Under the pieces are notes generated by a model. The model made no database searches, was not told the origin of the DNA, and was given only the letters and a program-made list of their open reading frames with translations. Positions 8,713 to 39,723 of a stretch of DNA of 64,000 bases are shown one piece after another. Where the stretch lies: the NCBI GenBank assembly GCA_965645245.1, contig OZ287068.1:3100001-3164000 (forward strand). Reading direction: 5' to 3'. Made by a program: the position numbers and the translations under genes. The number at the start of each line of letters is the position of its first letter. The first letter of the stretch is position 1. This DNA comes from Massalongia carnosa (lineage: Eukaryota).

Positions 8713-9816
8713 ATATCTCGACCCAAAAAGCCTCATTATGATACTCCCACAAAGGCCAAAGTTCAAGGAGCTTATCAATTTCTCATCTCACATGCAATTC
8801 CATTCGATCCACGGGCCATTTTTCAGGAATTTGGCGTGGCCGAGCGCGCGGGCTATAACATCATCAAAAGCGGAGCTTCTTCTCGCACACGTCACAATTC
8901 TTCTCTCGTTGAGACTCGGGGTCGAAAGCGAAAGATTAGTGATGATCAGCTGAAGGAGGCAGATCACATTCTGCAGGATCAAGATCTATAATTGGAAGGA
9001 AAACGCTACACATGGGATGCTTTAGCACAGGAGATTGGGGCCGACGTGATGGGACGTACAATGAAGAGAACTCTTACAGCTGCCTTGAATTATCATAAAT
9101 ATCTAGCCTGTGTCAAAGGGTGGCTGGCAATGGCATCAGAAGAAAGAAGAGAAGAATTTGCTACAGTTATGTTAAATAAATATCCTCGGTCCGAAGACTG
9201 GCATCGCGTACGATTCAGCGATGGGATTCATTTTGGCTACGGGCCTGAAGGACAGTTACGAATCATTCGTAAGCCCGGAACAAGATATCGTTGGGATTGT
9301 ATTCAGCATCGTGATGCACCACCTGAGAAAGATCGTAAAAGAAAGCACTGCTGGGCAGCAGTTGGTTACAATTTCAAGTCGGATATCTACTTCTACGATG
9401 TGCCCAGCAATAGCAATGGAAAAATGACTCATCAGGTGTATATTGACGCTATTCTTGATCCCGTCGTCAAGCCCTGGTTGGAGCGTGGAGATGACTTCGT
9501 ACTTGAAGAAGATGGAGATTCTGGTCATGGCACGGGCAAGACACGAAACGCGGTCAAAAAGTGAAAGTTAGATCACGATTTAGAGCACTATTTCAATTGT
9601 GCTTCATCTCCTGATCTAGCTCCCATTGAAAATTGCTGGCAGCCCGCAAAGCAGCATGTTCGTAAATTTCCTCATTGGGACGATGCAAGTTTGGAGCAGC
9701 TGATTAGGGAGGGATGGGCTCGAGTCAGTCAAGAATTTATCAATGAAAGGGTGTTATCCATGCCCAAAATATTGAAAGAGGTAAAAGATGCAAAGGGGGC
9801 GATGACTGGTTATTGA
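8713..9816 (+). pseudogene. Tc1-like DDE transposase, inactivated
   Basis: One continuous frame: HYDTPTKAKVQGA...ETRGRKRKIS...WHRVRFSDGIHFG...FVLEEDGDSGHG...SSPDLAPIENCW...GAMTGY*. Probable start ATG>ATA at 8713, and in-frame stops TAA 8989-8991 and TGA 9562-9564. Confidence 0.9.
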
Positions 9817-13539: not shown

Positions 13540-16500
13540 ATGATGTTTCCTTCCTCTGCAGTCTTTGCGCTACTTGCTTTGGCAAAATGTATCTTGTCCT
13601 TAGAAGGAGCTCTTGACTTGTGTAACATAAATTTCGAGCACAGGAAACCAACCCCAGTTGCTCCATTTTCCCTACATGGGGCGTTTGATGAATATGGCCG
13701 TGACTCCGGGGTACCAAACATCATGAAAAAAGACAATTATGGTCTCTGGCAGTATGATCTTATGACAGAATTGCCATCATTCTCCCAGGTGTATATCCCG
13801 GGACCTTATGAAGATCCTGAATCCGATATGTCCCCAGCAATTGGAGAATTTCGCAATTTTACCGTTGCCGGCCATTTATCACTAGTTTCCCCTCGGGGAA
13901 ATATAGTTAATGTGGATAGATATCCGGGATCTCCAGCCTTAGCTTATAGAATCATACTGAATGAGACCGACCTTGGATACTACCTGTCTCCTATCGGCTC
14001 CCGGAGGATTCATGTTGTCATCTACTTCCTTGGGACAGTTCCCATCTTGACCGGATTTGCTAGTATTCGAATCTATCAGTGTGCTTTCTATGCTGTAAAG
14101 GTCACGAAAGGGCAGTATACTTCCTATGACAGCACCCTCAAGATTTCGGCAAAACGGTTCAGTTCCTGGGACAGCTTTGGAGAATTTCAAAAATCGTATT
14201 AAATGTTTAATGTCTCTTGGCAAAAGTTCAAACAAGAAGTCCAACACGACACCAAAACTTCACCGCCGTACCATTCATTCTGATAGCGACGATGGAATAT
14301 GATATCGATGACTGGGAAATTAAGATCGATATTGGCGGTCTCGGGGCCATGGCCCAATTGATGAGCAGAAATCTGGAGCAACAAAATCTTGTCTGGGTGG
14401 TTCCTTGCATTCGTGGTATCGAGTACCCCAAAGACCAACGAGCAAACCCGATGACGGTAACTATCTTTGGGGTTCACTATATTGTTCAGGTCCAGTACCA
14501 TCGTCTCCGGAACATTACCTATGTGCTGTTGGACGCTCCAGTGTTCCGAGCTCAAACCACCACTGAGCCTTACCCTCGGTGGATGGATGACATAGACAGT
14601 GCCATTTATTATTCGACATGGTATGTGTCCTTAATCTAGTGCTCTGTCGTCACCAAAGTTTTAGCAATCTATACGCACCCCGTATGTTCAATCACCCCCC
14701 CTCCCCCCAATTTTGTTCATTGAGTTCTATTGGGCTTACCCTTCTTTGCCTGTGTTTTGCTATTTAGCATTTTTTTGTCATTATGGGCTTTCCTTAAAAC
14801 AATCTACTCGATGACCAACCTACAATTTTCTCCTTATAAGATTTTATACTATTTTTTGTGACCAGAATCGTCGCTGATAGCACTAACCTAATCAATAGGA
14901 ACTCTTGCATCGCTGAGGCTATAAGACGTTTTCCGATAGATCTCTACCACATTAACGATTTTCATGGAGCTCTAGCTCCGTTACACCTGTTACCTAGGGT
15001 TATACCGTGCTGTTTATCGCTGCACAATGCAGAGTTTCAAGGGTTATGGCCAATACGAAGTCATAGGAAGTTGATGAGTTGTGTCGCATTTACAATCTAG
15101 ATTTGGTCATTTTACGACAATACGTTCAGTTTGGCGAATTTTTCAATCTGCTTCATGCAGGTGTGAGCTATCTTCGTATCTGGCAGAATGGCTTTGGTGT
15201 CGTGGGTGTCTCTCAGAGTATTCAACACGATCATTCGCTCGATATCCCAAATTTGGGAGACTCGATAAGATTGGCAGCCTTCCGTATCCGGATCCTGCTG
15301 ATACAGAAGAGTTGGTCTTAGATGCTCGAGCATCTGCTCATACAATGGCAACTGGACCAGGATTTCGAAGCTAGAAGACCAAGTCTCAAGAGCCAGACTC
15401 AAGAGTGGGCGAACCTTGAGAAAATCCCCGAGGCCGAAATATTTGTCTTTATTGGTCGTTGGTCGATGCAGAGAGGTGTTGATCTGATAGCGGACGTTTT
15501 CCCTGCCATCATAGAGAAGTATTTGAACGTTCAGCTCATCTGCATTGGACCTATCGTGGATCTTTATGGAAAATTTGCAGCCTCCAAGCTTGATAAACTT
15601 GCTAGCCTGTACCCTAAAAGGGTTTGCTCTAGGCCAGAAGTCTTAGGCGTTCTGCATTTCGTGTCTAGTGGCGCTGAATTTGCCTTGATGCCCTCCCGTG
15701 ATGAGCCTTTTGGCTTAGCAGCAGTAGAGTTTGGTCGAAAAGGGGCTCTTGGCGTTGGTGTCCGCGTTGGAGGGTTAGGAAATATGCCTGGATGATGGTT
15801 TACGATTGAATCAACTTCGTCTAAGCACACGATCAGTCAGTTCAAGATGGCTATTGAAGCGGCGTTGGCATCTAAATCTGAAAACCGTGCGATCATGAGA
15901 GCACAGTCTACGAGGTAGAGGTTTCCGGTCGCGCAATGGAAAGCCAGTCTCGCCTTATTGCATGACACCGCCATTAGAGAATGCCAGAGAAAGGCCACAA
16001 CCAAAAAGTCCAAAACAAACAATACATTTGGAACGATAAAGCCCTCCATCAAATCAACTATTCCGTCAAGGCTTCTCTACCCGATGGATCGACGTAGAGT
16101 ACCAGTTCCTTTACCACCAAGTATGCCGCCGAGCGAGTCAACAACTCGAGTTGCAAGTCCTTCTGGGATATCTAGGCTTGAGGCAGGTCTCCCCTCCTTG
16201 GGCCGTATAATAGGCCCAGGCCATATAACGGAATCTGCTGAGCGTAAGCGTCCCCGCTTACGAGACGTATATCGAGGACGTAGGAGTAGAGGCCCTTTAA
16301 GGTATGAACCTAAATGTACCTTAATAACTTTATTCCGCTGAACTTTCAATATTATACTTTAGCCTTATCTTTGTTTTCATTTTATTCTTCCTCCTCCTCC
16401 CTTCGCTTATATTTAGGTTTGATTAAACCACTTGACTAAATAATCGATTCAATATAGCCAACCTCTACCGATTCCACCAGGGACAAAAGCAGCTAACAAT

Positions 16501-18960
16501 GCCCCCATGAAGTATTGTTCGCTCCGAGAAGGTGCTCTGGTAACTAGTTCCTTGAGTATTGACCACCAGATGAAGCCTTTGGACAGGATAGTAAAGTCTA
16601 TAAGCTTTACCGGTGCTTTTTCAATTCCTATTGTTATCGAATCTGGATACCCGAAGAGCCAAGTGAATAGACAGGGAAACGAGATACTAAACGACGATAT
16701 GCTTGAGAAAATGGACGATGGAAACTCTTCTAACAAGGGGTATTGTTAAGGTCTTAGCTTATAGCAATCATACCACGGTTCAAGATATTATGGACGAATA
16801 CTTTTTGACACCCGAGCAAGCGGGGGCTAGTAAAAGATTAAGCAAACTTGCCTCACTCAGACAGACGCTGGAAGCGCATATCACAGGTAATATTCTCGGT
16901 GTAACTAGTTCGCCTTCTCTCGCTTCCGCTGGTACTTTCAGGGCCCAGGAACTTTCTATAAACGCCTATGGCTCATTTCTAGCCGATGATCTATCGTTCT
17001 CGCATACCAGATCTTGGTTTCATAATTTTGCGCCTGAAGCTGCAGTTCCGAGGTCCGCTGAAGCAGATAAATCCCCAATACCGATAGCCCTAGAAACGAG
17101 TTTTACCCCAAACCTGGCGAGCTTGCCACTACTACCTCTGGACTCACATGTGAGCCTCGAGAGTCTGCTTCAAGGAAGAAAAGATTACCGGTTGCAAAAG
17201 GCCAAGCCTTCCTTCACTGATGCTACAGGCTTTTATTATCATGCTTTCTTCACAAAACTTCATGACCTGAACAGTAGAGCTTCAGAGGGTTCTCTGTGCA
17301 TAGAAAACTTCTTGGTTCAGAGCGAAAATGACTGGCTAAATCGCTTCCGGGGTGTTATGATGAGGAAGTCCCCCAATAGCTCTCTGGCTAGAACCGAAGG
17401 CCGTGGCAACCCCCTATACGCTGAGTTTGGCGAGGGCGAATGCCAAGATCAGTTCGCCTTGGAGGACGGTTATCGATATCCTACGGGCCTGAGAAACTTC
17501 TTCCTTCGACGAATTGGAGAGTGGCCAGTATACTCTTTTTTCCTTGCGTTCGTAAGTTCCCTTTACACCAAGGCGCCTGACGAAGACTAACATCCCCAAG
17601 GGGCAAATCCTCGGGGTCAGTTTCTATCATGTCACTCTCCTAACGGGCAAAGCTAGTCAGTCTGCTCAACAGTTCTACGTCATGGCTGGTATTTATATCG
17701 TTACATCCTTGTTATGGTGGGTCTCATTCCGTATGTTTAAATCGTTATACGTGCTCGTTGCGCCGTTTGCGTTTTATGGGTTGGCGTTTTTCGTTCTCGG
17801 AGTCACAAACTTTGCCCGTTTCGTACATGACAGGGATTGGATTGAGAATATTGCCACTGCCTTCTACGCCGCAGCATCCTCGAGCTATGGGTTTTATTTC
17901 TCCTTAAATTTCGCGAGCGAGCGTCTGTAATCACAACCCCTGCGTCGATAGTTCTCATCTCTGATTTCTCCCCAGGAGATGTGCCGGTCGCGACTTGGAG
18001 CTTTCGCGCGTGTGTGATACAGGGCAGCCAACAAATATACTTGGTGGTGCTCTGGTATTGGGGTTCTCGGGCTTCACTGTCTATGACCACCTCTACTACT
18101 AGGCTCGTTCATGACCCGAGCCTTACGAGGATCGCGCTGCCTATCGCACTGCTGATGTGGATCGTTTGCATCGTTCTATTCCATGGCTTGCCAGATTATT
18201 ATCGGCAAGCGCCTGAGCGGATTCCTTCGTTCTACAAACCCACCACGCACCGAAAAATCATCCTGGTAAGTGCAACATCGTCGTTCGGACCCAGGTTTCC
18301 GTCGTTCCGCTCTACTGACCACATCATCTCAGTGGTTCTTTGTCATGGTGGTAATTCGGAATTTCTTTCTCGCGCTACCATTCAGCCACAACTGGAAGTA
18401 TCTCTGGTCTAGCAGCCACGCACCGGCGTGGGCCGTGACTATCCTCGTCCTTGCCTTCTTCGTTGGCATTTGGGCTGCCATGCTTGCTTTCTTCGCTAGA
18501 CTTTCAACTTGGCACTTGTGGATCCTGCCTATGTTCGCTGTTGGCTTAGGCGCTCCACGCTGGGGTCAGATTCTGTGGAGCACATCCTCCATCGGCGCTT
18601 GGATCCCTTAGGCTGGATCGCCCCTCGCGGTGCTTTGGTTGGCCGGACGCTGTGGCTTTGGCTTGGAGTGCTCGACGCCATTCAGGGCGTCGGCTTTGGC
18701 ATGATCCTGATGCAGACCCTGACGCGGCTGCACATTGCCTTTGCCATGGGCGAGGCGCAGGTGCTTGGAGATATGGCCATGATCATCGCTCGTGCCTCCG
18801 CCTTTCAGTCCAACGGCCCCGGTTCCGTCTTCCCGAACCTAGCGGTCTCCGGCGTGCAGGGGTTGAAGAGCGTATGGTTCTGGGTTTGCCTGCTGCTGCA
18901 GTTGAGTATATGTGTAGGATTCTTCAAGTTTTCCGGAAAGAACAGCTTCAGAAACCATGA
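13540..18960 (+). pseudogene. ags: Alpha-1,3-glucan synthase (Ags/Mok family) pseudogene, N-terminally truncated
   Basis: GT5-type motifs: [101 protein letters not shown] multi-TM C-terminus ends FFRKEQLQKP. In-frame stops at 15793-15795 (GNMPG*W), 15916-15918 and 18609-18611, plus several frameshifts (e.g. ~15070, ~18930). Confidence 0.88.
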
Positions 18961-19927
18961 CGCTCCGGACAGGCTAACCGTTTGGGATGGAGGCTGCCTG
19001 TAGTGTACTCTCACACAACCGGTCCCTTCTTTCATTTTCTGTTTCCATCGTCATCTTGGGTTAGCCAGGCGAGAATCATACGGGATCCGACTTCAACGGT
19101 TGTTTACCGCAGCTTTCATGTATCCGATGCAGCGTTCGCTAGCGTATGAGTCGGGGCGGTTTATCGCGTTCCAGTCCCTTCTTTCTACCTTCTTTCTACC
19201 TTGCATCGTCCCTCTTGTTGAAAAGTCCGTCTCTTATTGAACCGATTTCCCTCTTAATGGGAACGTGATAGGTGGCTGACGAACGCCAGGCTACGTGGAA
19301 GAAAATGAACCTGTCCATTGCCAAACCGTTTTGATTTGAGAAAAAAACCAACGTGCGTCACAGAGTACTATAGACTACGACATAGTACTACCTCTCCACC
19401 TATCAAATTTCTGATTTCTGACGCAAAGGTGCGCTGGCCAAAGATAAGCGATCGGCAACAGACATCGAAATACCGAATCCACTGGAGAAGGTTCGTGAAG
19501 CTACATGCGAGCCAATCATCTTTTACTAGACGTTGGAGGTAGCACTAGGGGATAGCGGCGGGTGTAACCGAAGCACGAGCCCCTATACCCTGCATAAGTA
19601 TCGACTAGGGCATGTACCGCGTTTTTACGATTGTATGTACGAATTGCGACCCGCCAAAACATGCGCAAAAAAAACTCAAAACACAAATGCACAAAAACAC
19701 AAAACCACCCCTACCGCCTCCCGCCATCCCGAGCTCCTCCAGCCTCCCCACCCCCCCAGCCTCCCTCCTCCCCACAAACCATATCCAAACTCACCCACTC
19801 CAACCATCTCATCCAGCCCGCTCTTTATTTCCTTCCCAACCTCTCCTTCAACCTTCACTCGTTTCTTCTGCACATATATTTGGCGTGTGCTCGCTTTGAG
19901 TACAAGCCTACCCTCTCGTTCCTTAGC

Positions 19928-21034
19928 ATGTCCTGGCTGCGACGCTTGTCACGAGATCGATCTTACAAAGGCGAATCTAGTCCCCAAATGCCTCCTCGGC
20001 CCGCTTCCTTCCAAACGGATACCAACCATAACAGCAACAACATCAACAACAACAATAACCATAACAACAACAATATCAACAACCAATCCTTGCTATATAA
20101 AGACACGCAGTATTCCAGCACCCACAACTCACGAGACAAACTGTTATCATATCGCGCATCTGCACCGCAAGACCAGCAATTCAATTCACCTCAACGTCCT
20201 CCCGGCACTGCGAGCGATGCGACCATGCATACCGCTCCGTCCAACATGACATCCGCCCCGGATCCTTTAACGAAAGCCTTCAACGAAGCCATCAAGCCAT
20301 ATATTGATCAAATTGAGACCTTAAAGAACGAGCTGGAGGACACCACGTTGCAGCTTCAGCAATTGGAGGATGAGCGGGCAGACATGCACGCGTGGATCGA
20401 CAAGCGCGGTCTTCGAGCCGGTGAGCTCTCCATGAATCTAACCCGTTTCTCGTCATCTGTGCTGACTTATTATTCAGACGTGCCGCCTTCCATCGCGCAA
20501 GCCATGAACACCGACCCCTCCGCCGCGCAAACCCTCAATTACCACCTCGACCGCAAAATGACGGTCCTCAACCACGATCTGCACCGCCTGCAGGACTCTC
20601 TCTCCACCCACCTCCCCACCTCGACCTTCGCCACCACGCTGGAGACCCTCATTCCATCCATTGAAAACCTCTCCTCCCTCCCCAACGGGCCCCCCCTTGC
20701 GTTTGAGCTCATCATCAAACTCGGCGGCAACCTGAACTCGCACGGCGGCGACGAGGGCTGGAACAACGAGGCCGACGTCACCAGCCGCGCCGCCTTCTAC
20801 GGCCGCCTGGACGAATGCATGGTCGACGTGATTCGGCAGCGCCTGTCCCAATCCCACGGCGAGGACCCCCCGTGGATGATCATACGCGACATCAAGCGGC
20901 TGGAGAAGACGGGCTCCTTCCTCAAGAGCAAGATCGGTTTGCAGGCGTATTTCCCACGCAGCTTGGAGGTCATGCAGTACGAGGTCAAGAGGGGGGAATC
21001 GCAACTGGCGAGGCCGCAGCGGGTGTCTCCGTGA
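19928..21034 (+). CDS. Hypothetical fungal protein with Asn-rich N-terminus and coiled coil
   Basis: MSWLRRLSRDRS..., poly-N tract, coiled coil (YIDQIETLKNELEDTTLQLQQLEDERADMHAWIDKRGLR). In-frame 57-bp GT-AG intron at 20421-20477. GC-rich, coding-like 3' exon. Confidence 0.8.
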   Translation: MSWLRRLSRDRSYKGESSPQMPPRPASFQTDTNHNSNNINNNNNHNNNNINNQSLLYKDTQYSSTHNSRDKLLSYRASAPQDQQFNSPQRPPGTASDATMHTAPSNMTSAPDPLTKAFNEAIKPYIDQIETLKNELEDTTLQLQQLEDERADMHAWIDKRGLRAGELSMNLTRFSSSVLTYYSDVPPSIAQAMNTDPSAAQTLNYHLDRKMTVLNHDLHRLQDSLSTHLPTSTFATTLETLIPSIENLSSLPNGPPLAFELIIKLGGNLNSHGGDEGWNNEADVTSRAAFYGRLDECMVDVIRQRLSQSHGEDPPWMIIRDIKRLEKTGSFLKSKIGLQAYFPRSLEVMQYEVKRGESQLARPQRVSP

Positions 21035-23811: not shown

Positions 23812-24168
23812 AGCACTAGGAGTTGTCAAAGCTGTGGTGATGATTATAAAGGAGCTTGGGAGTCTGGAAGCCTGACAAAGGCACTAAGGCAATAAGAGAG
23901 GGGTATTGTGAGGCTGCAAGAGCGAGGATCTAGTCATAGGCCCATTGGACAGTTACTGCTCGACTTGAAATGCGACGTATTTCGACAAGCGTTTAGTTTT
24001 ATCATTGGCTGCTATGGGCTGACCACAAGGCTGAGTAAGTAGGCCTGCTCTATAATATTCTGGTCCCCTCGCTCACAGCAATAGGATTTCATTGGCCTTG
24101 AAGCTCTACCAAAACTTAACTAGAGCACCTTTCGCATCGACTATCTCAAATTTCAGTAAAACACACAA

Positions 24169-27100
24169 ATGGCTGTAGATCCGTGGGAAGCTGCGCGCAC
24201 CCAGTACATGAAAGATTTGAGCAATGAAGAACAGAAGCTTTTTGAAACAGCCACACTGGAAAACCTCCTTGATAGTACAACAGCGGCTCAGAGGGAGCAT
24301 GAAGAGAAAAGCCATTCGCGACATGTCTCGAGGAAGTTAAAACCGCTTGTCAATGCAGTTCTACAGTATGGCACGGCACTCGACATCTATGCCAATACAT
24401 ATTCCATTGCTATGGCTCCTTTATGGGGAAGCATTAGAGTTCTTCTTCATGTACGAGCCACATTCTATGAGATACATGGAGTTATATAATCTTCTCTCTT
24501 TGTTAACGTCGTTCAAGATAGCACAATCATTTGAGAAATACTTTCAAAAACTCATCGACATGCTTGAGAGAATAGGGGATGTTCTCCCCAAATGTCAAGT
24601 TTATCATAACTTGTTTTCAACCAATGAAAGACTTCTACAAACAATCTCGGTGGCTTACGTCGATATAATTCACTTCTGTTGGACAGCGAAGAAGGCTTTC
24701 CGCAAAATGAAGAAGTCCACGACTAGTATGACTTTTTCTTTCAACTTTCAACGTATGCTGATATTTTGTTAGTATACATGACTCCGAAGCTTTGTTGGAA
24801 GGATGTCAACAAGGAATTCGACGAAACGCTAGATGGTTTCCGTAGTCATGTGAAGAGCGTTGAGAAAGAGGCTGGTATGTTGAGTATGATAGAAACTCAC
24901 GAAGGATGGGCTGTGGCAGAGCGCGAAAGAAAACGTAATTCCAAAAATTTACCGCTGTGTCATTTATGCCATTAATTTTTCAGCAGTCAAAAGAAGAGAT
25001 CAACTGTTGTCATGTCTTTCAGAGATTAGGTACACTGCGAACCATCAAAGCGAGCGCAAGAAACACCACCCAGGAACCGGATCTTGGTTAAAAGAGACTG
25101 TCGAGTTCAAGGATTGGGAAGCAGGCGCTCAATCACAGTGTCTGTGGTGTTACGGTATACGTAGGTTACTGACATTGAAACCTCTATCAGAATAATCGAG
25201 GAGACTGATAATTTTGGTATCTTTAGCCGGCTCTGGAAAGACCGTCTTAATGTACAAATCAAATGACTATTTTGAAACATTAGACAGGGTTAACACTGTT
25301 TAGGTCATCCACTATCGACACGCTAGCAGAAAGTATTCTTGAGAGGGATATCACTCTGCCCTCAGCGTCTTATCAAGATTTAGTCAAAAAAACCACACGT
25401 CTCAGAACTGCAATCGTCTATCATTACTGCGAATTTTCTGATTCACGATCCTTAGAGCCAACAATCATCTTAGGGACATTGATCAGACAACTGTTAGAGA
25501 CAGTGACTATACCTGAAGCTTTATACCAGCATATTGAACGATACTTTACACCGCGTACTAGACAGGCAATGCCTGAAGAACTGCTTGCAGTTCTTGAGGA
25601 TGCTCTACCACAGTTCTCAAAGATATACATATTGATCGACGGCCTAGATGAATGCAACAGGAAAGACATACATTTTCTTTTGCAAGTGTTCAATAAGCTT
25701 CTACAATCAAAGTTTGGTCACTCGACACTCAAGCTTATCGTTTTTAGTCGTCATAATGATGCAATAACCCGTTGTCTGACTTCGTACACTAGCGTTGAGG
25801 TATCGATAGATAAGATATCACTTGATATTAACTCTTTCATTGAAGAATCGGTGAAATCAAAAATATCTTGTGGGGATTTGGAGATTTCAGATGTATCATT
25901 AGAAAGAGACGTAATAACCACGCTGAAAGAGGGTGCACATGGAATGTAAATTTTGAATACTAAACGCTCTTATATATCACATGATTGTGACTAATTACGT
26001 TAGGTTTCTATGGGTTCATTTTCAACTCCTGGATCTGTGCGATGCCGCAACAGATCTTGAGGTTAGAGAAACCCTTCGAAATCTTCCAGAAGGTATGATC
26101 GCAACCTACAGCCGGATTCTGGAAAAAATAGCTGGAAATCGAACCAAAAAAGCTCTTGCTCAGCAGATGTTCAAATGGATTGTTTGCGCAAAGCGGCCAA
26201 TGTCCCTAGCTGAATTGGCCGAGGCCGTTGCTTTCAAATCTACCGACACTTCCTGGAGCCAGGAGAAAATTCCAAATTATGGGCGCTTGTATGAAGCTTG
26301 CGGAAATCTCGTTATGATTAATGAAGAGGATAAGACAGTCCGACTTGCTCATCATACCGTTCAACAATTCTTGCTTGAATCAGCGAGGGGGGTAGTTGAG
26401 TGCTTTCATATCTCTCTTCCACAGGCTGAGATAGAAGTAGGAGAAATTTGCGTTGCATACCTATCATTTTCAGATTTTGAAACGCAAATCGCTGTAGCAA
26501 ATCACCACATTTTGCCTGGATATCGCATACCTAAACCAATGGCGATTGGGAAACAGGTCGCTTCTCAGTCAGGCTTAAACAATATAACATCGTCAATATT
26601 CAAGGCTAGAAATCACTTTCGTACCCGTACATCTTTATTACCGTCTATTGACTTCGACCTTTCAAGGTTTGCGAAGTTGAGAATGCCACCATCACGAACG
26701 CTGCAAGAAAGATATCTCTTTATAGATTATGCAATTCAAAATTGGATCAGCCACACATCAGCATTTTCGGAACGTGATACAAATATATGGATATCATTCA
26801 GAAAGCTAGCCTTTAATAAGTGTCTGCCATTTGACATTAGACCATGGGGCGATATTAATGAGCTGAAAAAGAAACCCTATGCAGATTTTATTCAATGGGC
26901 CATAAGTGCACAACATTTGCCATTGCTGCAGCTTCTTCCACAAAATTGCTGTATTGTAGATGAGTGGTTTCTTCTAGCGATTCAAAACGATAACTTAACA
27001 ATCATCGAACTGCTGATAGCCAAGGGAGCGGACGTCGAGGCGAAGAATAGTCATGACGAGACAGCGCTGCACTGGGCAGCTGAAAATGGGCACACGACAA

Positions 27101-30100
27101 CCGTCGAGCTGCTGATGATCAAGGGAGCGAATGTCGAGGCGAAGACTGATCATGACGTGACGGCGCTGCACAGAGCAGCCGAAAACGGACACACGGCGAT
27201 CGTCGAGCTGCTGACGATCAAGGGAGCAAACATCGAGGCGAAGAATGATCATGACGAGACAGCGCTGCACTGGGCAGCCGAAAACGGACACATGGCGATC
27301 GTTCAGCTGCTGACGATCAAGGGAGCGGACATCGAGGCGAAGGATGATCGTGACATGACGGCGCTCCACTGGGCAGCCTGGAGCGGGCATACAGCGATCG
27401 TCGAGCTGCTGACGATCAAGGAAGCGGACATCGAGGCGAAGGATGGTCGTGGCATGACTGCGCTGCATTGGGCAGCCGAAAACGGGCATACGGCGATCGT
27501 CGAGCTGCTGACTATCAAGGAATGGGCAGCCTGGAACGGGCATACGACGATCGTCGAGCTGCTGACGATCAAGGGAGCGAACTTCGAGGCGAAGAATGAT
27601 CGTGGCATGACGGCGCTGCACTGGGCAGCCTGGAACGGGCACACGGCGATCGTTGAGCTGCTGACGATCAAGGGAGCGAACGTCGAGGCGAAGGATGATT
27701 TTGGCATGACGGCGCTGCACAGGGCAGCCGAAAACGGGCACACGGCGATCGTCGAGCTGCTAACGATCAAGGGAGCGGACGTCGAGGCGAAGGATGATCG
27801 TGGCATGACGACGCTGCACTGGGCAGCCGAAAACGGGCATACGGCGATCGTCGAGCTGCTGACGATCAAGGGAGCGGACGTCGAGGCGAAGGATGATTTT
27901 GGCATGACGGCGCTGCACAGGGCAGCCGAAAACGGGCACACGGCGATCGTCGAGCTGCTAACGATCAAGGGAGCGGACGTCGAGGCGAAGGATGATCGTG
28001 GCATGACGACGCTGCACTGGGCAGCCGAAAACGGGCATACGGCGATCGTCGAGCTGCTGACGATCAAGGGAGCGGACGTCGAGGCGAAGGATGATCGTGG
28101 CATGACGACGCTGCACAGGGCAGCCGAAAACGGGCACACGGCGATCGTCGAGCTGCTAACGATCAAGGGAGCGGACGTCGAGGCGAAGGATGATCGTGGC
28201 ATCACGACGCTGCACAGGGCAGCCGAAAACGGGCATACGGCGATCGTCGAGCTGCTGACGATCAAGGGAGCGAACGTCGAGGCGAAGGATGGTCGTGGCG
28301 CGACGGCGCTGCACAGGGCAGTCGAAAACGAGCACACGGCGATCGTTGAGCTGCTGACGATCAAGGGAGCGGACGTCGAGGCGAAGGATGATCGTGGCAT
28401 GACGGCGCTGCACTGGGCAGCCTGGAACGGGCACACGGCGATCGTTGAGCTGCTGACGATCAAAGGAGCGAACGTCGAGGCGAAGGATGATTTTGGCATG
28501 ACGGCGCTGCACAGGGCAGCCGAAAACGGGCACACGGCGATCGTCGAGCTGCTAACGATCAAGGGAGCGGACGTCGAGGCGAAGACTGATCGTGACGCGA
28601 CGGCGCTGCACAGGGCAGCCGAAAAAGGGCACACGGCGATCGTCGAGCTGCTGACGATCAAGGGAGCGAATGTCGAGGCGAAGGATGATCGTGACATAAC
28701 GGCGCTGCACTGGGCAGCCTGGAACGGGCATACGGCGATCGTTGAGCTGCTGACGATCAAGGGAGCGGACGTCGAGGCGAAGAATAATCGTGGCATGACG
28801 ACGCTGCACAGGGCAGCCGAAAACGGGCACACGGCGATCGTCGAGCTGCTGACGATCAAGGGAGCGAACATCGAGGCGAAGAATGATCATGACGAGACAG
28901 CGCTGCACTGGGCAGCTAAAAATGGGCACACGACAACCGTCGAGCTGCTGATGATCAAGGGAGCGAATGTCGAGGCGAAAAATGATCATGACGTGACGGC
29001 GCTGCACAGAGCAGCCGAAAACGGACACACGGCGATCGTCGAGCTGCTGACGATCAAGGGAGCGAATGTCGAGGCGAAGAATGATCGTGACATAACGGCG
29101 CTGCACTGGGCAGCCTGGAACGGGCATACGGCGATCGTTGAGCTGCTGACGATCAAGGGAGCGGACGTCGAGGCGAAGAATAATCGTGGCATGACGACGC
29201 TGCACAGGGCAGCCGAAAACGGGCACACGGCGATCGTCGAGCTGCTGACGATCAAGGGAGCGAACATCGAGGCGAAGAATGATCATGACGAGACAGCGCT
29301 GCACTGGGCAGCTAAAAATGGGCACACGACAACCGTCGAGCTGCTGATGATCAAGGGAGCGAATGTCGAGGCGAAAAATGATCATGACGTGACGGCGCTG
29401 CACAGAGCAGCCGAAAACGGACACACGGCGATCGTCGAGCTGCTGACGATCAAGGGAGCGAATGTCGAGGCGAAGAATGATCGTGACATAACGGCGCTGC
29501 ACTGGGCAGCCTGGAACGGGCATACGGCGATCGTTGAGCTGCTGACGATCAAGGGAGCGGACGTCGAGGCGAAGAATAATCGTGGCATGACGACGCTGCA
29601 CAGGGCAGCCGAAAACGGGCACACGGCGATCGTCGAGCTGCTGACGATCAAGGGAGCGAACATCGAGGCGAAGAATGATCATGACGAGACAGCGCTGCAC
29701 TGGGCAGCTAAAAATGGGCACACGACAACCGTCGAGCTGCTGATGATCAAGGGAGCGAATGTCGAGGCGAAGAATGATCATGACGTGACGGCGCTGCACA
29801 GAGCAGCCGAAAACGGACACACGGCGATCGTCGAGCTGCTGACGATCAAGGGAGCGGACGTCGAGGCGAAGAATGATCGTGGCATGACGACGCTGCACTG
29901 GGCAGCCGAAAATGGGCACACGGCGATCGTCGAGCTGCTAACGATCAAGGGAGCGGACGTCGAGGCGAAGACTGATCGTGACGCGACGGCGCTGCACAGG
30001 GCAGCCGAAAAAGGACACACGGCGATCGTCGAGCTGCTGACGATCAAGGGAGCGAATGTCGAGGCGAAGGATGATCGTGACATGACGGCGCTGCACAGGG

Positions 30101-30957
30101 CAGCCTGGAATGGGCATACGGCGATCGTCGAGCTGCTGACGATCAAGGAAGCGGACGTCGAGGCGAAGACTGATCGTGACGCGACGGCGCTGCACAGGGC
30201 AGCCGAAAAAGGACACACGGCGATCGTCGAGCTGCTGACGATCAAGGGAGCGAATGTCGAGGCGAAGGATGATCGTGACATGACGGCGCTGCACTGGGCA
30301 GCCTGGAACGGGCATACGGCGATCGTCGAGCTGCTGACGATCAAGGGAGCGGACGTCGAGGCGAAGAATAATCGTGGCATGACGACGCTGCACAGGGCAG
30401 CCGAAAACGGGCACACGGCGATCGTCGAGCTGCTGACGATCAAGGGAGCGAATGTCGAGGCGAAGGATGATCGTGACATGACGGCGCTGCACTGGGCAGC
30501 CTGGAACGGGCATACGGCGATCGTCGAGCTGCTGACGATCAAGGGAGCGGACGTCGAGGCGAAGACTGATTTTGGCACGACGGCGCTGCACTGGGCAGCC
30601 GAAAACGGGCACACGGCGATCGTCGAGCTGCTGACGATCAAGGAAGCGAACGTCGAGGCGAAGAATGATCGTGACGTGACGTCGCTGCACAGGGCAGCCG
30701 AGAAGGGACACACAGCGATCGTCGAGCTGCTGACGATCAAGGGAGCGGACGTCGAGGCGAAGGATGATCGTGGCATGACGGCGCTGCACTGGGCAGCCTG
30801 GAACGGGCATACGGCGATCGTCGAGCTGCTAACGATCAAGGAAGCGGACGTCGAGGCGAAGGATGATCGTGGCGCGACGGCGCTGCACAGGGCAGCCGAA
30901 AACGGGCACACGGCGATCGTTGAGCTACTAAAGGCTGCTCAACGGCTTCACAAATAA
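24169..30957 (+). CDS. Fungal NLR-like STAND protein: N-terminal helical domain + NACHT + winged helix + 40 ankyrin repeats
   Basis: N-terminal Goodbye/DUF7708-like segment (LKPLVNAVLQYGTALDIYAN...APLWGSIRVLL). HPGTGSWL, intron-split Walker A (WCYGI-PGSGKTVL, ~25140-25250), Walker B YILIDGLDEC, GMFLWVHFQL, VRLAHHTVQQFL, then the ankyrin array. Multi-exon; no lesion seen. Confidence 0.95.
27001..30930 (+). repeat. Tandem array of 99-bp ankyrin-coding units (40 units, one truncated)
   Basis: Consensus A[DN]VEAKxxxxxT[AT]LH[WR]AAx[NK]GHTAIVELLTIK[GE], near-identical at the DNA level. Units counted by hand from the ORF translation. Confidence 0.97.
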
Positions 30958-33258: not shown

Positions 33259-35655
33259 TCAAAATTTTTCCATGTACTCGGCCTCTACGTGACCGACTAA
33301 TTCATCCTTGTAGGCTACGACGAAATCCAAAGTAGCATTGCCGAGCGCGATGCAGAGTTGAAATATGCAGCGCCGCCACTTTATCTTGGTGAGCGGGTTC
33401 TTGTGGCTCTTCTCCATCCAGAGCTTGCTGCAGTCGACGCCGTAGTGAACCATGCAAAGGGCTTGAACCGCTATATGTAAAAAAACAACACCAAATTAGT
33501 TAGAACTTACATAGATCTAGAAAACTAATCTGAAGCGGACAAGCATTTCTATACGGATTTCTGTAGATCACCAAAAAAATAAATAAAAGACGAGCTTACA
33601 CTCCGTTTTACGCGTCGGCGGCGTAGATTCCTCATTGTAGTAAAGACTGGTAGAGAATGTTCTCATACCAGTATCCAAAAAGCCGACCTGAACGCTACGA
33701 ATACATGCCGTAGTCAAAATTCGGCCCTCTTCCACCTCCTCGCCCTGTGGATCGGTTAGCTATCTTCCGAAACTTTGCATCTTTTAGAGATGGATCTGTA
33801 CGAACTCTCTTCAATAGCCAAGTCATCTGATCTTTGGCTCTATAGACGCCTTCTGACTCGTCGAGATAGCGATCGACAAGGAGATGTTTGGACGGATCAT
33901 AATTGTGCGAAAAAGCCATGCCATAACTGTAGCGCGATAATCTGGACACCACGGTCGGGCTAGTTACAATGCCGGGCAGATCTGAGTGCTCTAAGCCCCA
34001 AAGTGTGGCTCCGCGGCATATAGAAGACCATCTAGCACCTGTCAGACTTTCGAACTAACAAAGTTTGCAGCGGGAATGAAAGAGCAGGAATGAAAGAGCA
34101 CGAACGCGCCGTTGACCTGCATCACTTGTATACCATCGTTTACATGGCATTTCACCAACCGGTCGTACAGATACCGATTTTCACCAAAGCCACCAACAAG
34201 AAGAATCGACTACGTCGCCTAGGTGTTAGAAAGCTCACGTCTGTTGCCACATGGATTTCAATCAGTACCTTTATGGCGAGCCCTTTTTCTGCTACTTCGG
34301 CGATCTGCTCCGCAACTAAAGCCTCAATCTGTAATGATATGTGATCGAAGACCGTCCGCAGCGCAGAACTGTGTCAAATTAGCCAACGCGTAAAGGGAGG
34401 TGGCTATTAGGCCATCTTAGCTGTTGTTGAAAGAAGTGTCTTAGAGTTAAATCAGAAACACTATAATGCTTACATTTTGATCGTAATAGTATCATCAATG
34501 ATACCGTGGTTCGGGTCATCCTTCACACCTTTCAAGTCCACCGAGTAGTCTTGGTCGTTGTTCTCGCTGAAACAGCGCTTAATGCCATACTCGAATTCTC
34601 GCATCATTTTCTTCCGACTTCCTTCCCGGATTCGGTTGTATTCGGTTTCACCTATGATGGTGCAGATGTACTTCTGGAAAGCTAGGTCTAGGAATACTGA
34701 GCCGCATAATCCGCCTTGAACAAATACCTGGTGTTAGCTTAACTTTGTATGCAGGCAGAATGCAGGTAATTTGCACACCAGATCCAATTGCACATTCTCT
34801 AATCTTCAAAGGGTTCAAGCTTTGAACTTCGTAGCTGATCAAGTCCTGGAAAGGGTTTATTTGATTAGCAAAACACTGGCTAATGTAGAGTGGATGTCCT
34901 AACCACCGTACCACCCCCTGCATCACATACTACGAAGGCGTCTCCAGTCTAGACGGGGTTTAATTGATGTCAGTTTAATTGCTTTAAAGTTTTTCATTTA
35001 CCGGCCTCACCTTGAGTGAATTTTCGTCCGCCTTGTCTTTCAAGGTCGCAAGAGCTGCAGCTTCGGGCTCAGTTACCAACTTAATGTTTTTCGGCATGCC
35101 TGCGTTTCGAGCTGCCTGGACGGTTTTTTCCTTTGCCCCGGGGCTCCATATAGCGGGCACAGTCAATATGACCCGTAAAGAGAATATATCCTCAAAGTTA
35201 GGATGAAACTTTCGAATATCATCAATTGTGTAATCCCACAACAGTCTGAGATAATCGGCCACGACCTCTTGGGCCGTCTTGTTCACCTTTCTGAGTAATG
35301 TATTGGAGTTCTTGACTGGCTCTACTGTTGTCGCATACTTATGATTCTCTTCAAGAAGAACTTTTATCCACATAAATGACTCATCTGTAAGGCCAACACC
35401 GTAACCCCATTTAAGGGGCTTTCCGTTCAAATAGCTGATTGATGACGGCACTTTGTCTTTGGAAGCGTTTTGCGCCAATGGATCGGGCCAATTGTTGATG
35501 AGGCGAATGACCTTTGGGCCTCCATTGACAGCCCACGATACTCCGGAATGACTAACCAGCGTTCACAAATCAGCAACTATACTGCCAGGCTATCTTAATA
35601 CTTACGTTGTCCCGAAGTCGATGCCGACAACGATTTCTGAACTGTGCGTTTCCAT
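33259..35655 (-). CDS. Atypical Hsp70 / actin-like ATPase (HSPA12-like)
   Basis: Spliced motifs: VVGIDFGTTHSGVSW, NWP, KVPSSISY, VILTVPAIWS, VTEPEAAA, FVVCDAGGGTVDLISY, GGLCGSVFLD, ILLVGGFGEN, WSSICRGA, SRYSYG, QMTWLLKRG. Lacks the canonical peptide-binding domain signature and EEVD. Many GT-AG introns; the reading frame reconstructs without stops. Confidence 0.93.
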
Positions 35656-36257
35656 CTCGCGGAACCCAAATGCGATAGAGATTGTATTTGGGAGCAAATG
35701 CACCAGAGAGACGATGAGGCTCCGGCTTCCCAAGGATTAGGAGATGATCAAAAGTTCTTAGGTGCGGGGCAGCCATCCCTTCAAATGTAAGGCTCAAAGC
35801 TTTGAACAAGGCTGCGCTGAGCTGAACAGATTTTCGAAATACTAAAGCGGCAACGGGTTTTCAGCCTGAGCTTGGGGGTTAACTAGCTCAGCAGATAAGC
35901 AGAAAGAAGCAGGCCCTGTATAGTTCTAAATCTGTAACGCGCAGGTGTCGTGCTATTGATTGTGATGTTCTAGATCGTAGCCACGAAACTTGCAAGCCAG
36001 CCTCATGGGTGAGGCTGGCTTGGTCGTGTTAGAAATGATTACAAGATCTGGACTATCCCATCCACAATAGTCGAACTTATTGGAGTCACACAGTTCGAGA
36101 CCTATAACTTAAACCTGGAAGCTCTGTGTCCCTAATCAACCTTGTGAAATCCCCAACCGATTGCTTAAGTAAGAGCCGTAAGTGAACGTTAAGAGATACC
36201 CATCCATTCCACGATTGACAAGAAAACCAGTACAGTTTCTCGTCCATTCTCACAAAC

Positions 36258-37354
36258 ATGACCGCCGAACCCCCCTCTGCAGATATGCTGAGCATGATCC
36301 TTGTTATGGGCGTTACTGGTGCTGGCAAATCTTATTTTATCAACAAGCTTGCAAATTGCGAGGCTGTCGAAGTTGGAGATAAACTGAAATCTTGTACGAT
36401 ACGCCTGGAGCAAACGAAGCATGAAACAAAGCTTACCGTCATTTAGGCACTGCGACTTGTCAAGCAGTCCCCGTGAATATTGGTAGAAGTAAGGTGCTGC
36501 TAATTGACACACCTGGGTTCGATGATTCGACACGTACGGACTCAGAGATTTTGACTGAGATATCGCGCTTGCTCGCAGCGCAGTACGAAGCTGGCGTCAG
36601 CCTCAAAGGCGTGTTCTATCTGCACCGCATTACCGACATCCGATATCAAGGAGCATCGGTGAAAACTTTGAACATCTTCAAGAAGATCTGCGGCCAGCTA
36701 GCATTAAAAAATGTTATACTGGTCACGACCAGATGGAATGAAGTTGAGGAATCGCTGGGTGCAAGTCGAGAGCAACAGTTAAGAGATAATTTCTGGGCCT
36801 ACATGTTAAACAATGGCTCGACCATGGCACGCTTTTACGGCGATAGGGACTCGGCCATTGGGATGGCGAGCCAGCTAGTCAGCCAACGGGGCATTGTGCT
36901 AGAAATACAACGAGAGCTGGTTGACGAGGGCAAAACGCTCAAACAGACTGTTGCAGGTGCTTTTGTCAGTGACGATATATCAGAAATGAAAACGCAATAT
37001 GAGCAGGAGCTCAGAGACTTAGAGAAGCTTCGGCAAACACTACAAGACGGCGATCGCGCCATGAAGAGACAAATCCAGCAAGACTGGGCCCGAGAACAAG
37101 CAAGACTACAGACCGTTCATGTAGATGAGGAGAGATTGCGCAGAGAAATAGGAGCTGAGGTACGTGAAGAGATTAGTCGTAAAACGAACAAGAAGAATGG
37201 CGGCATTTGGAAAGTGATGCCTCTGCTTCCGTCACTACTTGGCATTATCGGGATGTTTGTTGGCATCCCTCCTGGAGCCACAGAGCTGTTGACATCATGG
37301 TTCTCGAACCTAGACCTTGGAGAGTCGGTTTCTGATTTTTTTGCAAACTTCTAG
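36258..37354 (+). CDS. AIG1/GIMAP-like (TRAFAC) P-loop GTPase with coiled coil and C-terminal hydrophobic anchor
   Basis: G1 GVTGAGKS, G2 KSCT (across intron 36394-36446), G3 LIDTPGFDD, YLHRITDIR, G4-like VTTRWN. Coiled coil (EMKTQYEQELRDLEKL...), then hydrophobic LLPSLLGIIGMFVGIPPG near the C-terminus. Confidence 0.92.
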
Positions 37355-37838
37355 GAGTGGTAGAGTCGCTGGGAAAACTCTGGACTTGGTAAGGGTTAGT
37401 GCTGCAGCTTGCTGGATCCTTCTGGTTACCTTACATGCAATAAAATTCCTTTAAACCATCTAGCTGGAATATCATAACGTGACTCCTTCAACTATAGAGC
37501 CTTTGTGTGGTGGGACCAGATTCGGCCCCTTTATGCCCTGTCCGCTGAAGGTTGTATAGTAGTATGTGTCTATTGAAATAGAACGCGTTTATTGGTTGAT
37601 CTACCACCCCAAGATAGTCGGAAACGGAGTTAGGCAGCCTGACTTCCAAATATTATGTTTGCTATAAATACATTAATAATGGCTTACAAGCTTGAAAGCT
37701 GATAGGATAGGTTCCGTTGGAATGCGACGCCCGACTTCATTGAATTGGTCTTGCTGCTTTAATCTCTGCACAGTAAGCGAGCATAGAGAGGATGGGCAGG
37801 ACACGAAAATGTAGCTGCATTGGTTCAGCACACTGTCT

Positions 37839-39723
37839 ATGTCCTTCAGCATCCATTCTAATAAAGAGCCAAGCTCAGACATGCCGCTTCACTCTGGCCA
37901 AAGAATTCGAAGCAAAATGCAAAACAAATCCCCCAAAGACCATACCAATCCGCACAAGCATGAACAGTTCTCTGACCGGATCAGTGCGTCTTACAGCGTT
38001 CCTGCGCAGTTTCCACTTGAAAATGCGCAGTCGCAATCAAAAAGATTACCGCCACCCCCACCCACAGAAAGATCTGTTAGGAAGGACGACTATCTCGAGG
38101 ATTCTCTTGATGCAAAACCTGAACTGACGAGGAAATTAAGCGCAAAAGGGATTGACGATGGCATGGCTAAAATCAGCTCTGCACAGAGCAATCGCGCGTT
38201 TTTAGATTACTATGATGGACAATCCAGGTACAACGAACAGGGCCACCGAGGCGCGAATAACTCGGCCGGTAGGACTTCGAACTACTTCAATGAAGGGGTT
38301 GCCGGCCGGCGCAGACAGAAGGAAGGTAAAAGAAATTGCATCCATTCAGCGTTGGGAGATAAGTAACTAATGCTGGGTAGATCACCGTTCATCGCGAGGA
38401 GATGAAAGTGGCGGAGTAGGTTGAAATCCAGACTAACAGTCTTTCATGGCACAGACATTGGCTGAAGATGTGTTAGTGGTCATTCCGCGCAGGCCTGAAA
38501 AAGATGAAAAATAATATACAGGAAAGCATCAACGATGAGTACTATTACTCAGATGAGTACGATAAGCCAGCCGAGCCGCACCGAATAAATCATGAAGAAC
38601 GCATTCACATATTGCAACATGAGAATGAACAGCAAGCGAGAATCATATCAGAGCTGCAGAATGATCTCAATCATGAGATCGAGAATAGTAGAAAGATCAA
38701 GGAATCAGCGAATAAGATGGCATTTGCTATGGAGAGCAAGGAGATTTTCATAGGACCACAAGCTAGCGATGACGTGATCTACTCCCGTTTTCAGTCGCTG
38801 TTGGGGCAGATCAAAACCTGGTCTATTCCGTTTGCACGAGATCTCACAACAATCTCTGAGGATCTATCATTAATTAACCTTCAAGAATTTCAAAAAGTAG
38901 CTCCGGCTGTCTCTGATCTCCCACGCTTTCTTCAAGTTCCAAAAAACGCTCGTCTATTTGTTCGAGGATATGTTAGCCTTGCTATGGCAGAGTCACTCTT
39001 CCGCACTTTTCCTAACGAACCTCATCCAGGCTCAGATGCAGAGGATGTCTGGATGGACAAGGAGGTCGCACATAGTGTTTTTCTAATAGAGAACAACCTC
39101 TTTTACGCAGGTAAAAGGTCCTTCCGCGCTCTGAGATTACCGCTGATATACCCATTTCCCAAGACCGCAAAGCCGTTTCATACCGCCAACTTCACGACTG
39201 GAGAGCACTGACAGCGACTCTGATTTCAAACCTTGACGGCTCAAGCAAAACGGGTAAGGGCATGGAAACACATGTAACGAGCTGTAGTAATCGGATCATG
39301 TCTTTTGTTGGAAACTGGGCTGCTGCCGAGAATAGAAAGGCGTTGGAAGACGATCTCTTGGAGATTCTATTTGGTGCAGTGAAGTTTGCGCAATTACTGC
39401 GCCGGCAGCGAGCATGTTGGTCAGTCCGGTACTTTGGCCACGTCATTCAGAGATCTTGGAAACTTAAGTATAGCCAAAACCCAATGTTCTTCGACGAAGC
39501 TACCATGTACGACAAGGACGAAGATGAGGATAGCGATGGCAAAAAGGTTCAACTACCTTTCAAAAGAATAGTGGAAATTGTTGTGTCTCTGGGTCTCTTC
39601 AAACGTGGCAATACTGACGGCGAGCGCTTCGAATATGATTCATGTATGGAGAAGTCCGAGGTTAAGTGTGGAAAAACTTGGACTGGAGCTGGCCATGTAG
39701 AAACCCAAGAGCGAGTTGTATGA
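37839..39723 (+). CDS. Coiled-coil protein with conserved fungal helical domain and GrpE/MIEAP-like C-terminal beta region
   Basis: Exons 37839-38325, 38381-38415, 38477-39110, 39164-39723 join in frame. Disordered N-terminus, coiled coil, then SDDVIYSRFQSLLGQIKTWS, LHDWRALT, AVKFAQLLRRQRACWSVR, FFDEATM, VEIVVSLGLFKRGNTDGERFE...EKSEVKC. The gene model is well supported; the GrpE-like label is inference. Confidence 0.75.

Follow-up and report, generated by a model that had tools for sequence, protein, structure and literature searches.

The question raised by a 64,000-nt stretch of Massalongia carnosa DNA (NCBI GenBank assembly GCA_965645245.1, contig OZ287068.1, positions 3,100,001 to 3,164,000 of the forward strand; hereafter the window, whose own numbering is used below) is whether three genes packed into positions 33259–39723 belong together. 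They encode an Hsp70-like ATPase, an AIG1/GIMAP-type GTPase and a coiled-coil protein that we call G3. We found the same arrangement across distantly related fungi, and the trio therefore probably works as one unit; that it is a selected functional unit we consider highly probable. On balance we also lean towards a more specific reading, in which the three genes are one conserved, co-regulated module of filamentous ascomycetes that works by the mechanism outlined below. The trio is a real, conserved module that has apparently not been described before. Its parts in the window are as follows (aa, amino acids).

33259-35655, minus strand: Hsp70-like ATPase gene (possibly HSPA12-type; nucleotide-binding domain only), 576 aa, 10 exons (35655-35606, 35551-35011, 34948-34904, 34845-34779, 34714-34474, 34368-34269, 34209-34106, 34031-33806, 33744-33600, 33470-33259)
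35656-36257, no strand: divergent promoter common to the Hsp70-like and GTPase genes, 602 bp from one start codon to the other
36258-37354, plus strand: AIG1/GIMAP-type GTPase gene, 347 aa, two exons (36258-36393 and 36447-37354) and a 53-nt intron
37214-37270, plus strand: hydrophobic C-terminal segment of the GTPase (aa 302-320), predicted membrane anchor
37839-39723, plus strand: G3 gene, coiled-coil protein with no Pfam family; preferred model of 571 aa with four exons (37839-38325, putative and without homology; 38381-38415; 38477-39110; 39164-39723) and introns of 55, 61 and 53 nt

All three gene models follow from the removal of canonical short GT..AG introns (53–130 nt), and full-length homologues of matching size were found for each gene; it is because of these introns that plain open reading frame (ORF) lists of the window appear fragmented. 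The Hsp70-like gene runs from ATG 35655 to a stop codon ending at 33259, with introns of 54–130 nt and one terminal stop, and a tblastn search with the Usnea orthologue (P0121) matched residues 1–576 of the query over 33262–35655. For G3, the family hidden Markov model (HMM) matches 38477–39208 (E 6e-89) and 39115–39720 (E 1.4e-85), and the intron after the 'L-aromatic-aromatic-x-G' motif has a position common to the loci described below. Conservation in homologues of the residues directly upstream of the first acceptor led us to drop an earlier G3 model with a single 167-nt intron in favour of one in which ordinary introns enclose a 35-nt mini-exon. Exon 1 of G3 (37839–38325) is of low complexity and has no sequence homology; we infer it from its open frame, from splice sites of good quality and from homologues, whose N-termini are long and disordered. 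Two sequencing runs aligned to the locus contained only DNA identical to it, with no skipped introns and no variants; one of them is probably the source of the sequence. After intron removal each gene has one stop, at its end, and the trio is intact, as the first-pass annotation of this DNA had held. The spacing given there (about 600 bp between the divergent genes, about 480 bp from the GTPase stop to the third gene) also stands: the two divergent ATGs are 602 bp apart, and the putative ATG of G3 (37839) lies 484 bp beyond the GTPase stop. The closest protein matches of the window come from lichen-forming Lecanoromycetes, mostly Teloschistaceae, with 73–78% identity for the GTPase.

In the recurring layout, the Hsp70-like gene is divergent from the GTPase gene across a shared promoter of roughly 0.5–1.7 kb, and G3 follows downstream of the GTPase on its strand; this order and orientation is retained in several fungal classes and at least two deep clades. 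The named genomes with this arrangement are Lecanoromycete and Dothideomycete. The G3, GTPase and Hsp70-like genes are numbered consecutively in Bacidia gigantensis (KY384_005016/17/18), Delitschia confertaspora (KAF2200938/39/40) and Decorospora gaudefroyi (KAF1830152/53/54); the Hsp70-like and G3 identifiers are two numbers apart in Setomelanomma holmii and Alternaria dauci, and adjacent pairs were found in Blastenia, Loekoesia, Amniculicola, Macroventuria, Polycauliona and Flavoplaca austrocitrina. A metagenome scan with the GTPase alignment gave 41 loci, in which the partners were sought by tblastn and with the G3 HMM. The Hsp70-like gene lies upstream on the opposite strand in 14 out of 17 loci with at least 1400 bp upstream of the GTPase (about 12 distinct), and G3 lies downstream on the same strand in 14 out of 17 loci with at least 1400 bp downstream (about 13 distinct); L006 and L007, L021 and L022, and L011 and L012 are duplicates, and L024 is nearly equal to L025. 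We note that training of the G3 HMM included several locus pieces, all first found by tblastn; the G3 detections independent of the training are those in L022, L024, L025, L026 (weak, E 1e-3), L029 and L033.

The loci lacking a partner (L030, L032 and L036 upstream; L028, L034 and L041 downstream) carry more distant AIG1 genes. L032 (no Hsp70-like gene) and L034 (no G3) fall outside the partner-bearing GTPase clade (support 97/93), and the other four are too short to place. L009 was considered as a loss of the Hsp70-like gene and rejected, as only 98 bp of the expected gene are on the contig, with a weak N-terminal match (E 0.33); it was counted as not assessable. The window, L001, L002, L006, L011, L014 and L017 have no ORF of 70 aa or more in common beyond the trio (E<=1e-6), and the Pfam content of the flanks varies from locus to locus. 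The proposal that the three genes are a conserved unit that clusters in other fungal genomes is thus borne out by an order and orientation kept across classes without flanking synteny.

The gene trees, whose comparison had been suggested along with that proposal, agree on the major groups. The partner-bearing genes of the GTPase tree fall into two groups, clade A (with the window gene) and clade B. Hsp70-like partners from clade A group together in their own tree (support 99), in a clade that also includes Terfezia, Orbilia, Neonectria and Nemania, and L022, L026 and L027 form another (support 97). The L020 partner nests among Meristemomyces, Patellaria and Cenococcum proteins previously taken as unlinked 'paralogues', and therefore many members of the large fungal Hsp70-like family may sit in such trios. 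The G3 tree, with long branches and weak support, recovers Lecanoromycete, Pleosporales-like and Leotiomycete-like groups and leaves the copies of clade B outside them. It appears that the three genes diverged together, as one module, into clades A, B1 and B2. The median terminal branch is shortest for the GTPase (0.15), intermediate for the ATPase (0.57) and longest for G3 (1.32), which is a rough rate comparison as the trees hold different rows.

Two side observations concern the layout of these loci. A Na+/H+ exchanger gene lies upstream of the trio on the minus strand in L020 (303–776) and L027 (3–569); it is the only recurrent flank gene seen and suggests local synteny within clade B. An automated annotation from Flavoplaca limonia (P0408, 800 aa) joins the GTPase (residues 11–323, ending before the hydrophobic tail) to G3 (residues 404–799), which could reflect wrongly merged gene models in a metagenome-assembled genome, or else read-through or fusion.

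A conserved motif recurs in the shared promoter. In the window there are four AGGCTG/CAGCCT sites (35809, 35862, 35998 and 36012), the last two forming an inverted pair CAGCCTC..GAGGCTG. Among 13 promoters (10,199 bp), AGGCTG is the most enriched 6-mer (5.9-fold), with 41 AGGCTG/CAGCCT sites as compared to 6.6 expected under a first-order Markov null (2000 trials; standard deviation 2.5, maximum 19), and 28 as compared to 5.1 expected when L002 (tandem array) and L016 and L027 (near relatives) are dropped. Site density is 4.02 per kb in the promoters and drops to 0.68 per kb elsewhere in these sources, and the GTPase–G3 spacer is only mildly enriched (13 sites in 8,027 bp). A common promoter with a conserved motif supports the earlier claim that the genes are co-regulated. 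In L002, the divergent promoter (9482–9545) contains four tandem copies of a 16-bp unit, each with CAGCCTT, which resembles a local amplification of the motif.

Trimeric heat-shock elements were found in none of the 13 divergent promoters; dimeric heat-shock half-sites, stress response elements (STRE), motifs resembling unfolded protein response elements (UPRE) and ACGT-core motifs occur sporadically. According to passages of PMC2873923, the upstream regions of yeast genes that depend on Crz1 have GAGGCTG as a common motif, and the calcineurin-dependent response elements (CDREs) of Aspergillus are GTGGCTC and GAGGCTC. The AGGCTG core overlaps GAGGCTG and is close to the Aspergillus elements. 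The overlap, together with the lack of heat-shock elements in these promoters, suggests induction by calcium, membrane or cell-wall stress, not by heat; Crz1 itself is a tentative candidate for the regulator of the trio, on the doubtful side.

As for the proteins, two of the three family assignments made at first pass hold well. For the GTPase, three full-length orthologues pass the Pfam AIG1 cut-off (PF04548; cut-off 27 bits) with 47.9 (P0002), 41.2 (P0016) and 47.0 bits (P0068); exon 2 of the window gene alone scores 26.5 bits, just under the cut-off because the P-loop is encoded in exon 1. The translation has the G1 P-loop (GxxxxGKS) and the G3 box (DxxG; a GTPase motif, not our third gene), both conserved in 14 aligned orthologues. 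Using phmmer against solved structures, the best relative is GIMAP7 (3zjc, E 2.7e-12), matched over residues 13–304 (290 residues, including the helical extension), and the next are GIMAP4 (E 1.8e-7) and GIMAP5 (E 3.8e-7). Identity to Dothideomycete orthologues is 56–58%, and the protein contains a long helical region. Residues 302–320 have the highest 19-residue Kyte–Doolittle mean of the protein (1.94), and this segment is conserved across the 14 aligned orthologues together with flanking prolines and glycines, so that the tail probably inserts in a membrane. GIMAP1 and GIMAP5 carry C-terminal hydrophobic tail anchors, and the fungal GTPase resembles vertebrate GIMAPs in this segment as well as in its AIG1 score (orthologues) and closest structures. 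Unlike the vertebrate GIMAPs, which form a tandem array, it is present as one conserved orthologue, clustered with the genes of an Hsp70-like ATPase and G3.

The Hsp70-like protein has an Hsp70 nucleotide-binding domain (NBD) with intact ATPase motifs. Pfam HSP70 (PF00012) gives 40.9 bits on P0121 (cut-off 20.6), matching only about model positions 134–336 of 599, and 14.3 bits on the largest exon of the window gene alone; alignment to the DnaK NBD covers residues 8–356. Across 30 orthologues there is little or no variation in the phosphate-1, phosphate-2 and adenosine motifs, and identity between fungal classes is about 50–60%. A canonical substrate-binding domain or lid was not detected (the Pfam match is confined to the NBD, and every PDB match ends within it), and the C-terminal ~200 residues are a different region, annotated as DUF8340 (PF27033) in precomputed and Atlas annotation. 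Therefore this is not a classical Hsp70, and in lacking a detectable substrate-binding domain and lid it differs from canonical chaperones such as DnaK, Hsc70 and BiP. With only its NBD recognizable, it is an atypical Hsp70-family protein in the way that HSPA12A/B are. Among its ESM Atlas look-alikes, a chordate 'HSPA12A.1' cluster stands at rank 26 (score 0.96) in a feature-based row, and we treat the HSPA12 resemblance as a lead. One Hsp70-like sequence, P0145 from a Xanthomendoza sp. metagenome-assembled genome (Teloschistaceae label), has 67% identity to the Delitschia protein as compared to 51–56% for other lichen orthologues, which could mean a second copy or a sequence from another fungus that co-occurs in the assembly.

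Pfam finds no family on four full-length G3 proteins or on the G3 of the window. A profile search against 1.84 billion representatives gave 1658 clusters at E<=1e-3, of which 191 reach E<=1e-30; the members looked up by name are all ascomycete, and the Atlas rows agree. Structures were modelled for the homologues P0257 and P0263 rather than for the window's own spliced protein. The full-length P0257 model (predicted local distance difference test, pLDDT, 74.3) begins with a disordered N-terminus and continues with a 54-residue helix, a helical bundle and a small beta domain. For this model Foldseek gave nothing at E<=1e-3, and a wide structural search matched only the long helix (Z up to 6.4, unrelated coiled coils). 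Because the full-length model matched only coiled coils, the globular part was modelled alone. For P0263 (122-row alignment) this gave a pLDDT of 90.4 and a predicted TM-score (pTM) of 0.90, and the top three among 48,161 representative chains were all GrpE, with Z 5.5–6.2, ~110 of 301 residues aligned and root-mean-square deviations (rmsd) of 3.8–4.7, at Z scores under 8 that lie below the level the tool calls reliable and are too low to prove a common fold:

Rank 1, 9bls_B: human GrpEL1 bound to mortalin; Z 6.2, rmsd 4.6, 111 residues aligned
Rank 2, 1dkg_B: E. coli GrpE bound to the DnaK ATPase domain; Z 5.8, rmsd 3.8, 110 residues aligned
Rank 3, 4ani_A: Geobacillus GrpE; Z 5.5, rmsd 4.7, 110 residues aligned

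Only 2 of the 48,161 chains were counted at Z>=5, with 4ani_A listed at Z 5.5. We give these matches weight because a single family takes the top three places and is the Hsp70 exchange factor, beside a conserved Hsp70-family gene. From the models, G3 could work on the Hsp70-like ATPase in a GrpE-like way, an idea we take seriously at somewhat short of even confidence. The fungal pair shares with DnaK/mortalin and GrpE/GrpEL1 an Hsp70-superfamily NBD with intact ATPase motifs in the ATPase, and on the G3 side a predicted order of disordered N-terminus, long helix, helical bundle and small beta domain, with GrpE proteins as top fold matches. Unlike GrpE, G3 has no sequence similarity to that family by Pfam, profile search or hhalign, and its core is about twice the size, with extra helices; unlike DnaK/GrpE systems, the trio has no J-domain gene in the cluster and has the GTPase as an obligatory third member.

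The first-pass annotation had called the third gene GrpE-like or MIEAP-like. Of the first label, the fold ranking is what stands, since every sequence test against GrpE is negative. The second has in its favour one weak Atlas row: MIEAP is the second-nearest Pfam-named Atlas cluster to G3, with a score of 0.78, which on the tool's scale is too low to count as even a weak lead. No MIEAP match (PF16026) was found by Pfam on the four full-length G3 proteins or on 12 globular pieces (E<=10). MIEAP (SPATA18) proteins have a coiled-coil N-terminal part followed by a C-terminal globular domain, and G3 is similar in this layout; unlike them, the G3 proteins tested give no Pfam MIEAP match. Since the sequence criteria tested for GrpE and MIEAP gave no match, we do not place G3 in either family. 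All sequence routes from G3 to GrpE, MIEAP or GIL1 were negative, and a snail paper with both GIMAP and a mitochondria-eating protein was set aside, as both are merely entries in an expression table.

Taken together, the mechanism that we lean towards would run as follows. The GTPase would be held on a membrane by its conserved hydrophobic tail and cycle between GTP-dependent assemblies like GIMAPs. The Hsp70-like protein would be a dedicated ATP-driven partner without a canonical substrate-binding domain, and G3 its cofactor, most likely a nucleotide-exchange or adaptor factor that links the ATPase to the GTPase, so that the pair of ATPase and G3 would act on or with the membrane-bound GTPase. 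The module would be induced by calcium, membrane or cell-wall stress rather than by heat, and could be read as a device for stress homeostasis of a membrane or organelle, and not as one for allorecognition. A bolder version, which we regard as speculative and unlikely, is that of an ancient dedicated machine in which an HSPA12-type ATPase, driven by a GrpE-fold exchange factor diverged past sequence recognition, remodels or disassembles membrane-anchored GIMAP/AIG1 assemblies.

Several observations weigh against this mechanism. All GrpE fold matches of G3 are at Z<8, and Foldseek with the P0263 globular model gave nothing at E<=1e-3. GrpE chains are 0 of 51 among the PDB hits of the G3 profile (E<=10), the 25 Pfam families listed, out of 187 that match weakly across 70 G3 members, do not include GrpE, GrpE (PF01025) is matched by 0 of 12 G3 globular pieces at E<=10, and hhalign of G3 with E. 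coli GrpE gives a probability of 0.09%. G3 evolves far faster than its partners, which is unusual for a core cofactor. Two members of the G3 family, SVAN01_09152 of Stagonosporopsis and Q9225_007930 of Loekoesia, are on other contigs than the GTPase/Hsp70-like pair of the same genome; they may be paralogues or an effect of fragmented assembly. On the regulatory side, the background of the promoter control was whole loci, not matched intergenic DNA, and the motif would be tied to Crz1 by resemblance only.

The weakness of the GrpE scores and the negative GrpE sequence tests are also what one would expect if G3 were a regulator or adaptor of the GTPase, such as a GTPase-activating protein (GAP), a guanine nucleotide exchange factor (GEF) or a coiled-coil scaffold, with the GrpE likeness a coincidence of architecture. 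G3 is always directly downstream of the GTPase on the same strand, long coiled-coil helices are present in both proteins, and the two are fused in one annotation (P0408). Against this, P0408 comes from the automated annotation of a metagenome-assembled genome, in which two gene models may have been merged by mistake, and it would be left to coincidence that the top three of 48,161 chains belong to one family, the exchange factor of Hsp70, while an Hsp70-family ATPase sits in the same conserved cluster. We consider this account of G3 unlikely, with a low but real probability.

A second alternative is that the trio is an immune, allorecognition or cell-death system with the GTPase as a membrane effector triggered by non-self, and here the neighbourhood of the trio matters. 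One gene of the NOD-like receptor (NLR) type was tested close by:

~24160-30957, plus strand: NLR-like gene with DUF7708, NACHT (NPHP3_N), winged-helix domain and ~34 nearly identical 33-residue ankyrin repeats

Its end is 2.3 kb away from the stop codon of the Hsp70-like gene. After short-intron removal it is intact, with the Walker A motif and the junction of NACHT to the winged-helix domain restored across GT..AG introns; the statement that nearby accessory genes are pseudogenes therefore fails for the sole neighbour tested. Positions 1–23000 and 40000–64000 of the window contain genes for an R3H protein, histone H2A, a mitochondrial carrier, a glycosyltransferase, adenylosuccinate lyase, a KDEL receptor and the 75-kDa subunit of NADH dehydrogenase, and with such housekeeping genes around, the trio and the NLR-like gene are in a normal chromosomal region. 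In L022, the clade B trio is flanked by two NACHT-ankyrin genes and a HET gene (304–3141, minus; 16013–16594, minus; 18170–20787, plus).

These two neighbourhoods speak for an immune role, as do the several deep paralogous versions of the module, the large size of the G3 family, and the ties of AIG1/GIMAP and HSPA12-type families to immunity or stress in animals and plants (see PMC3723955 and PMC8201404). On the other side, L022 was the only one with NLR/HET-type neighbours among the 11 loci scanned, which makes 2 out of 12 contexts when the window is counted; the flanks of the remaining contexts hold housekeeping, P450/UbiA or transporter genes. NLR genes are very numerous in such fungi, and a chance adjacency to the trio is therefore plausible. 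No NACHT, NB-ARC, HET, HeLo or other death or recognition domain was found by Pfam in the three genes, and the GTPase and the ATPase are strongly conserved between classes, unlike fast-evolving recognition genes. A role in non-self recognition or cell death, put forward in the first-pass annotation, is thus not supported, and we consider it improbable.

A still less probable account, to which we give little credence, is that the genes share regulation only, as a co-expression cluster kept by its bidirectional promoter, with products that act independently in a common stress response. Divergent gene pairs can stay conserved owing to shared regulatory DNA, and the motif is indeed concentrated in the shared promoter. 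G3, however, is outside that promoter and is yet kept downstream in 14 out of 17 assessable loci, with the motif only mildly enriched in the spacer that precedes it, and the divergence of the whole module into clades A, B1 and B2 fits co-adapted partners better. That the adjacency is passive synteny without functional meaning is extremely improbable: close relatives (other Teloschistaceae) would share gene order anyway, but the order and orientation are kept across classes and in two deep clades with no shared flanking ORF.

A link between two of these families has been seen in animals. As described in sections of PMC6872716, Hsp70 and AIG1 families are convergently co-expanded in the nematode Halicephalobus mephisto and in oysters. 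Unlike the families in this statistical co-expansion, the fungal genes are physically linked, single, and accompanied by a third partner. Our literature search, whose coverage excluded subscription journals, found nothing on a fungal cluster of HSPA12/Hsp70, AIG1/GIMAP or mitochondria-eating-protein families.

Conserved non-metabolic gene clusters are uncommon in fungi, and the survival of this trio across classes without flanking synteny points to proteins that need joint inheritance and expression. Both GIMAP/AIG1 GTPases and HSPA12-type Hsp70s are important for immunity and stress biology in animals, through mechanisms that are unclear, and their joint expansion in nematodes and oysters is noted but left unexplained in the sections of PMC6872716 cited above. 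A physically linked, single-copy version with a third obligatory partner, in transformable organisms, would make it directly testable whether and how the two families cooperate, and G3, a large fungal family without a Pfam model in the library searched, gains a first context and a testable role. If an ATPase and its exchange factor do act as a machine on GTPase assemblies, this would explain the co-expansion of Hsp70 and AIG1 in stress-adapted animals and would offer a mechanistic, genetically tractable handle on the HSPA12 and GIMAP families; given the nesting of the L020 partner and the 1658 G3 clusters, much of the large fungal Hsp70-like family may then act in trios.

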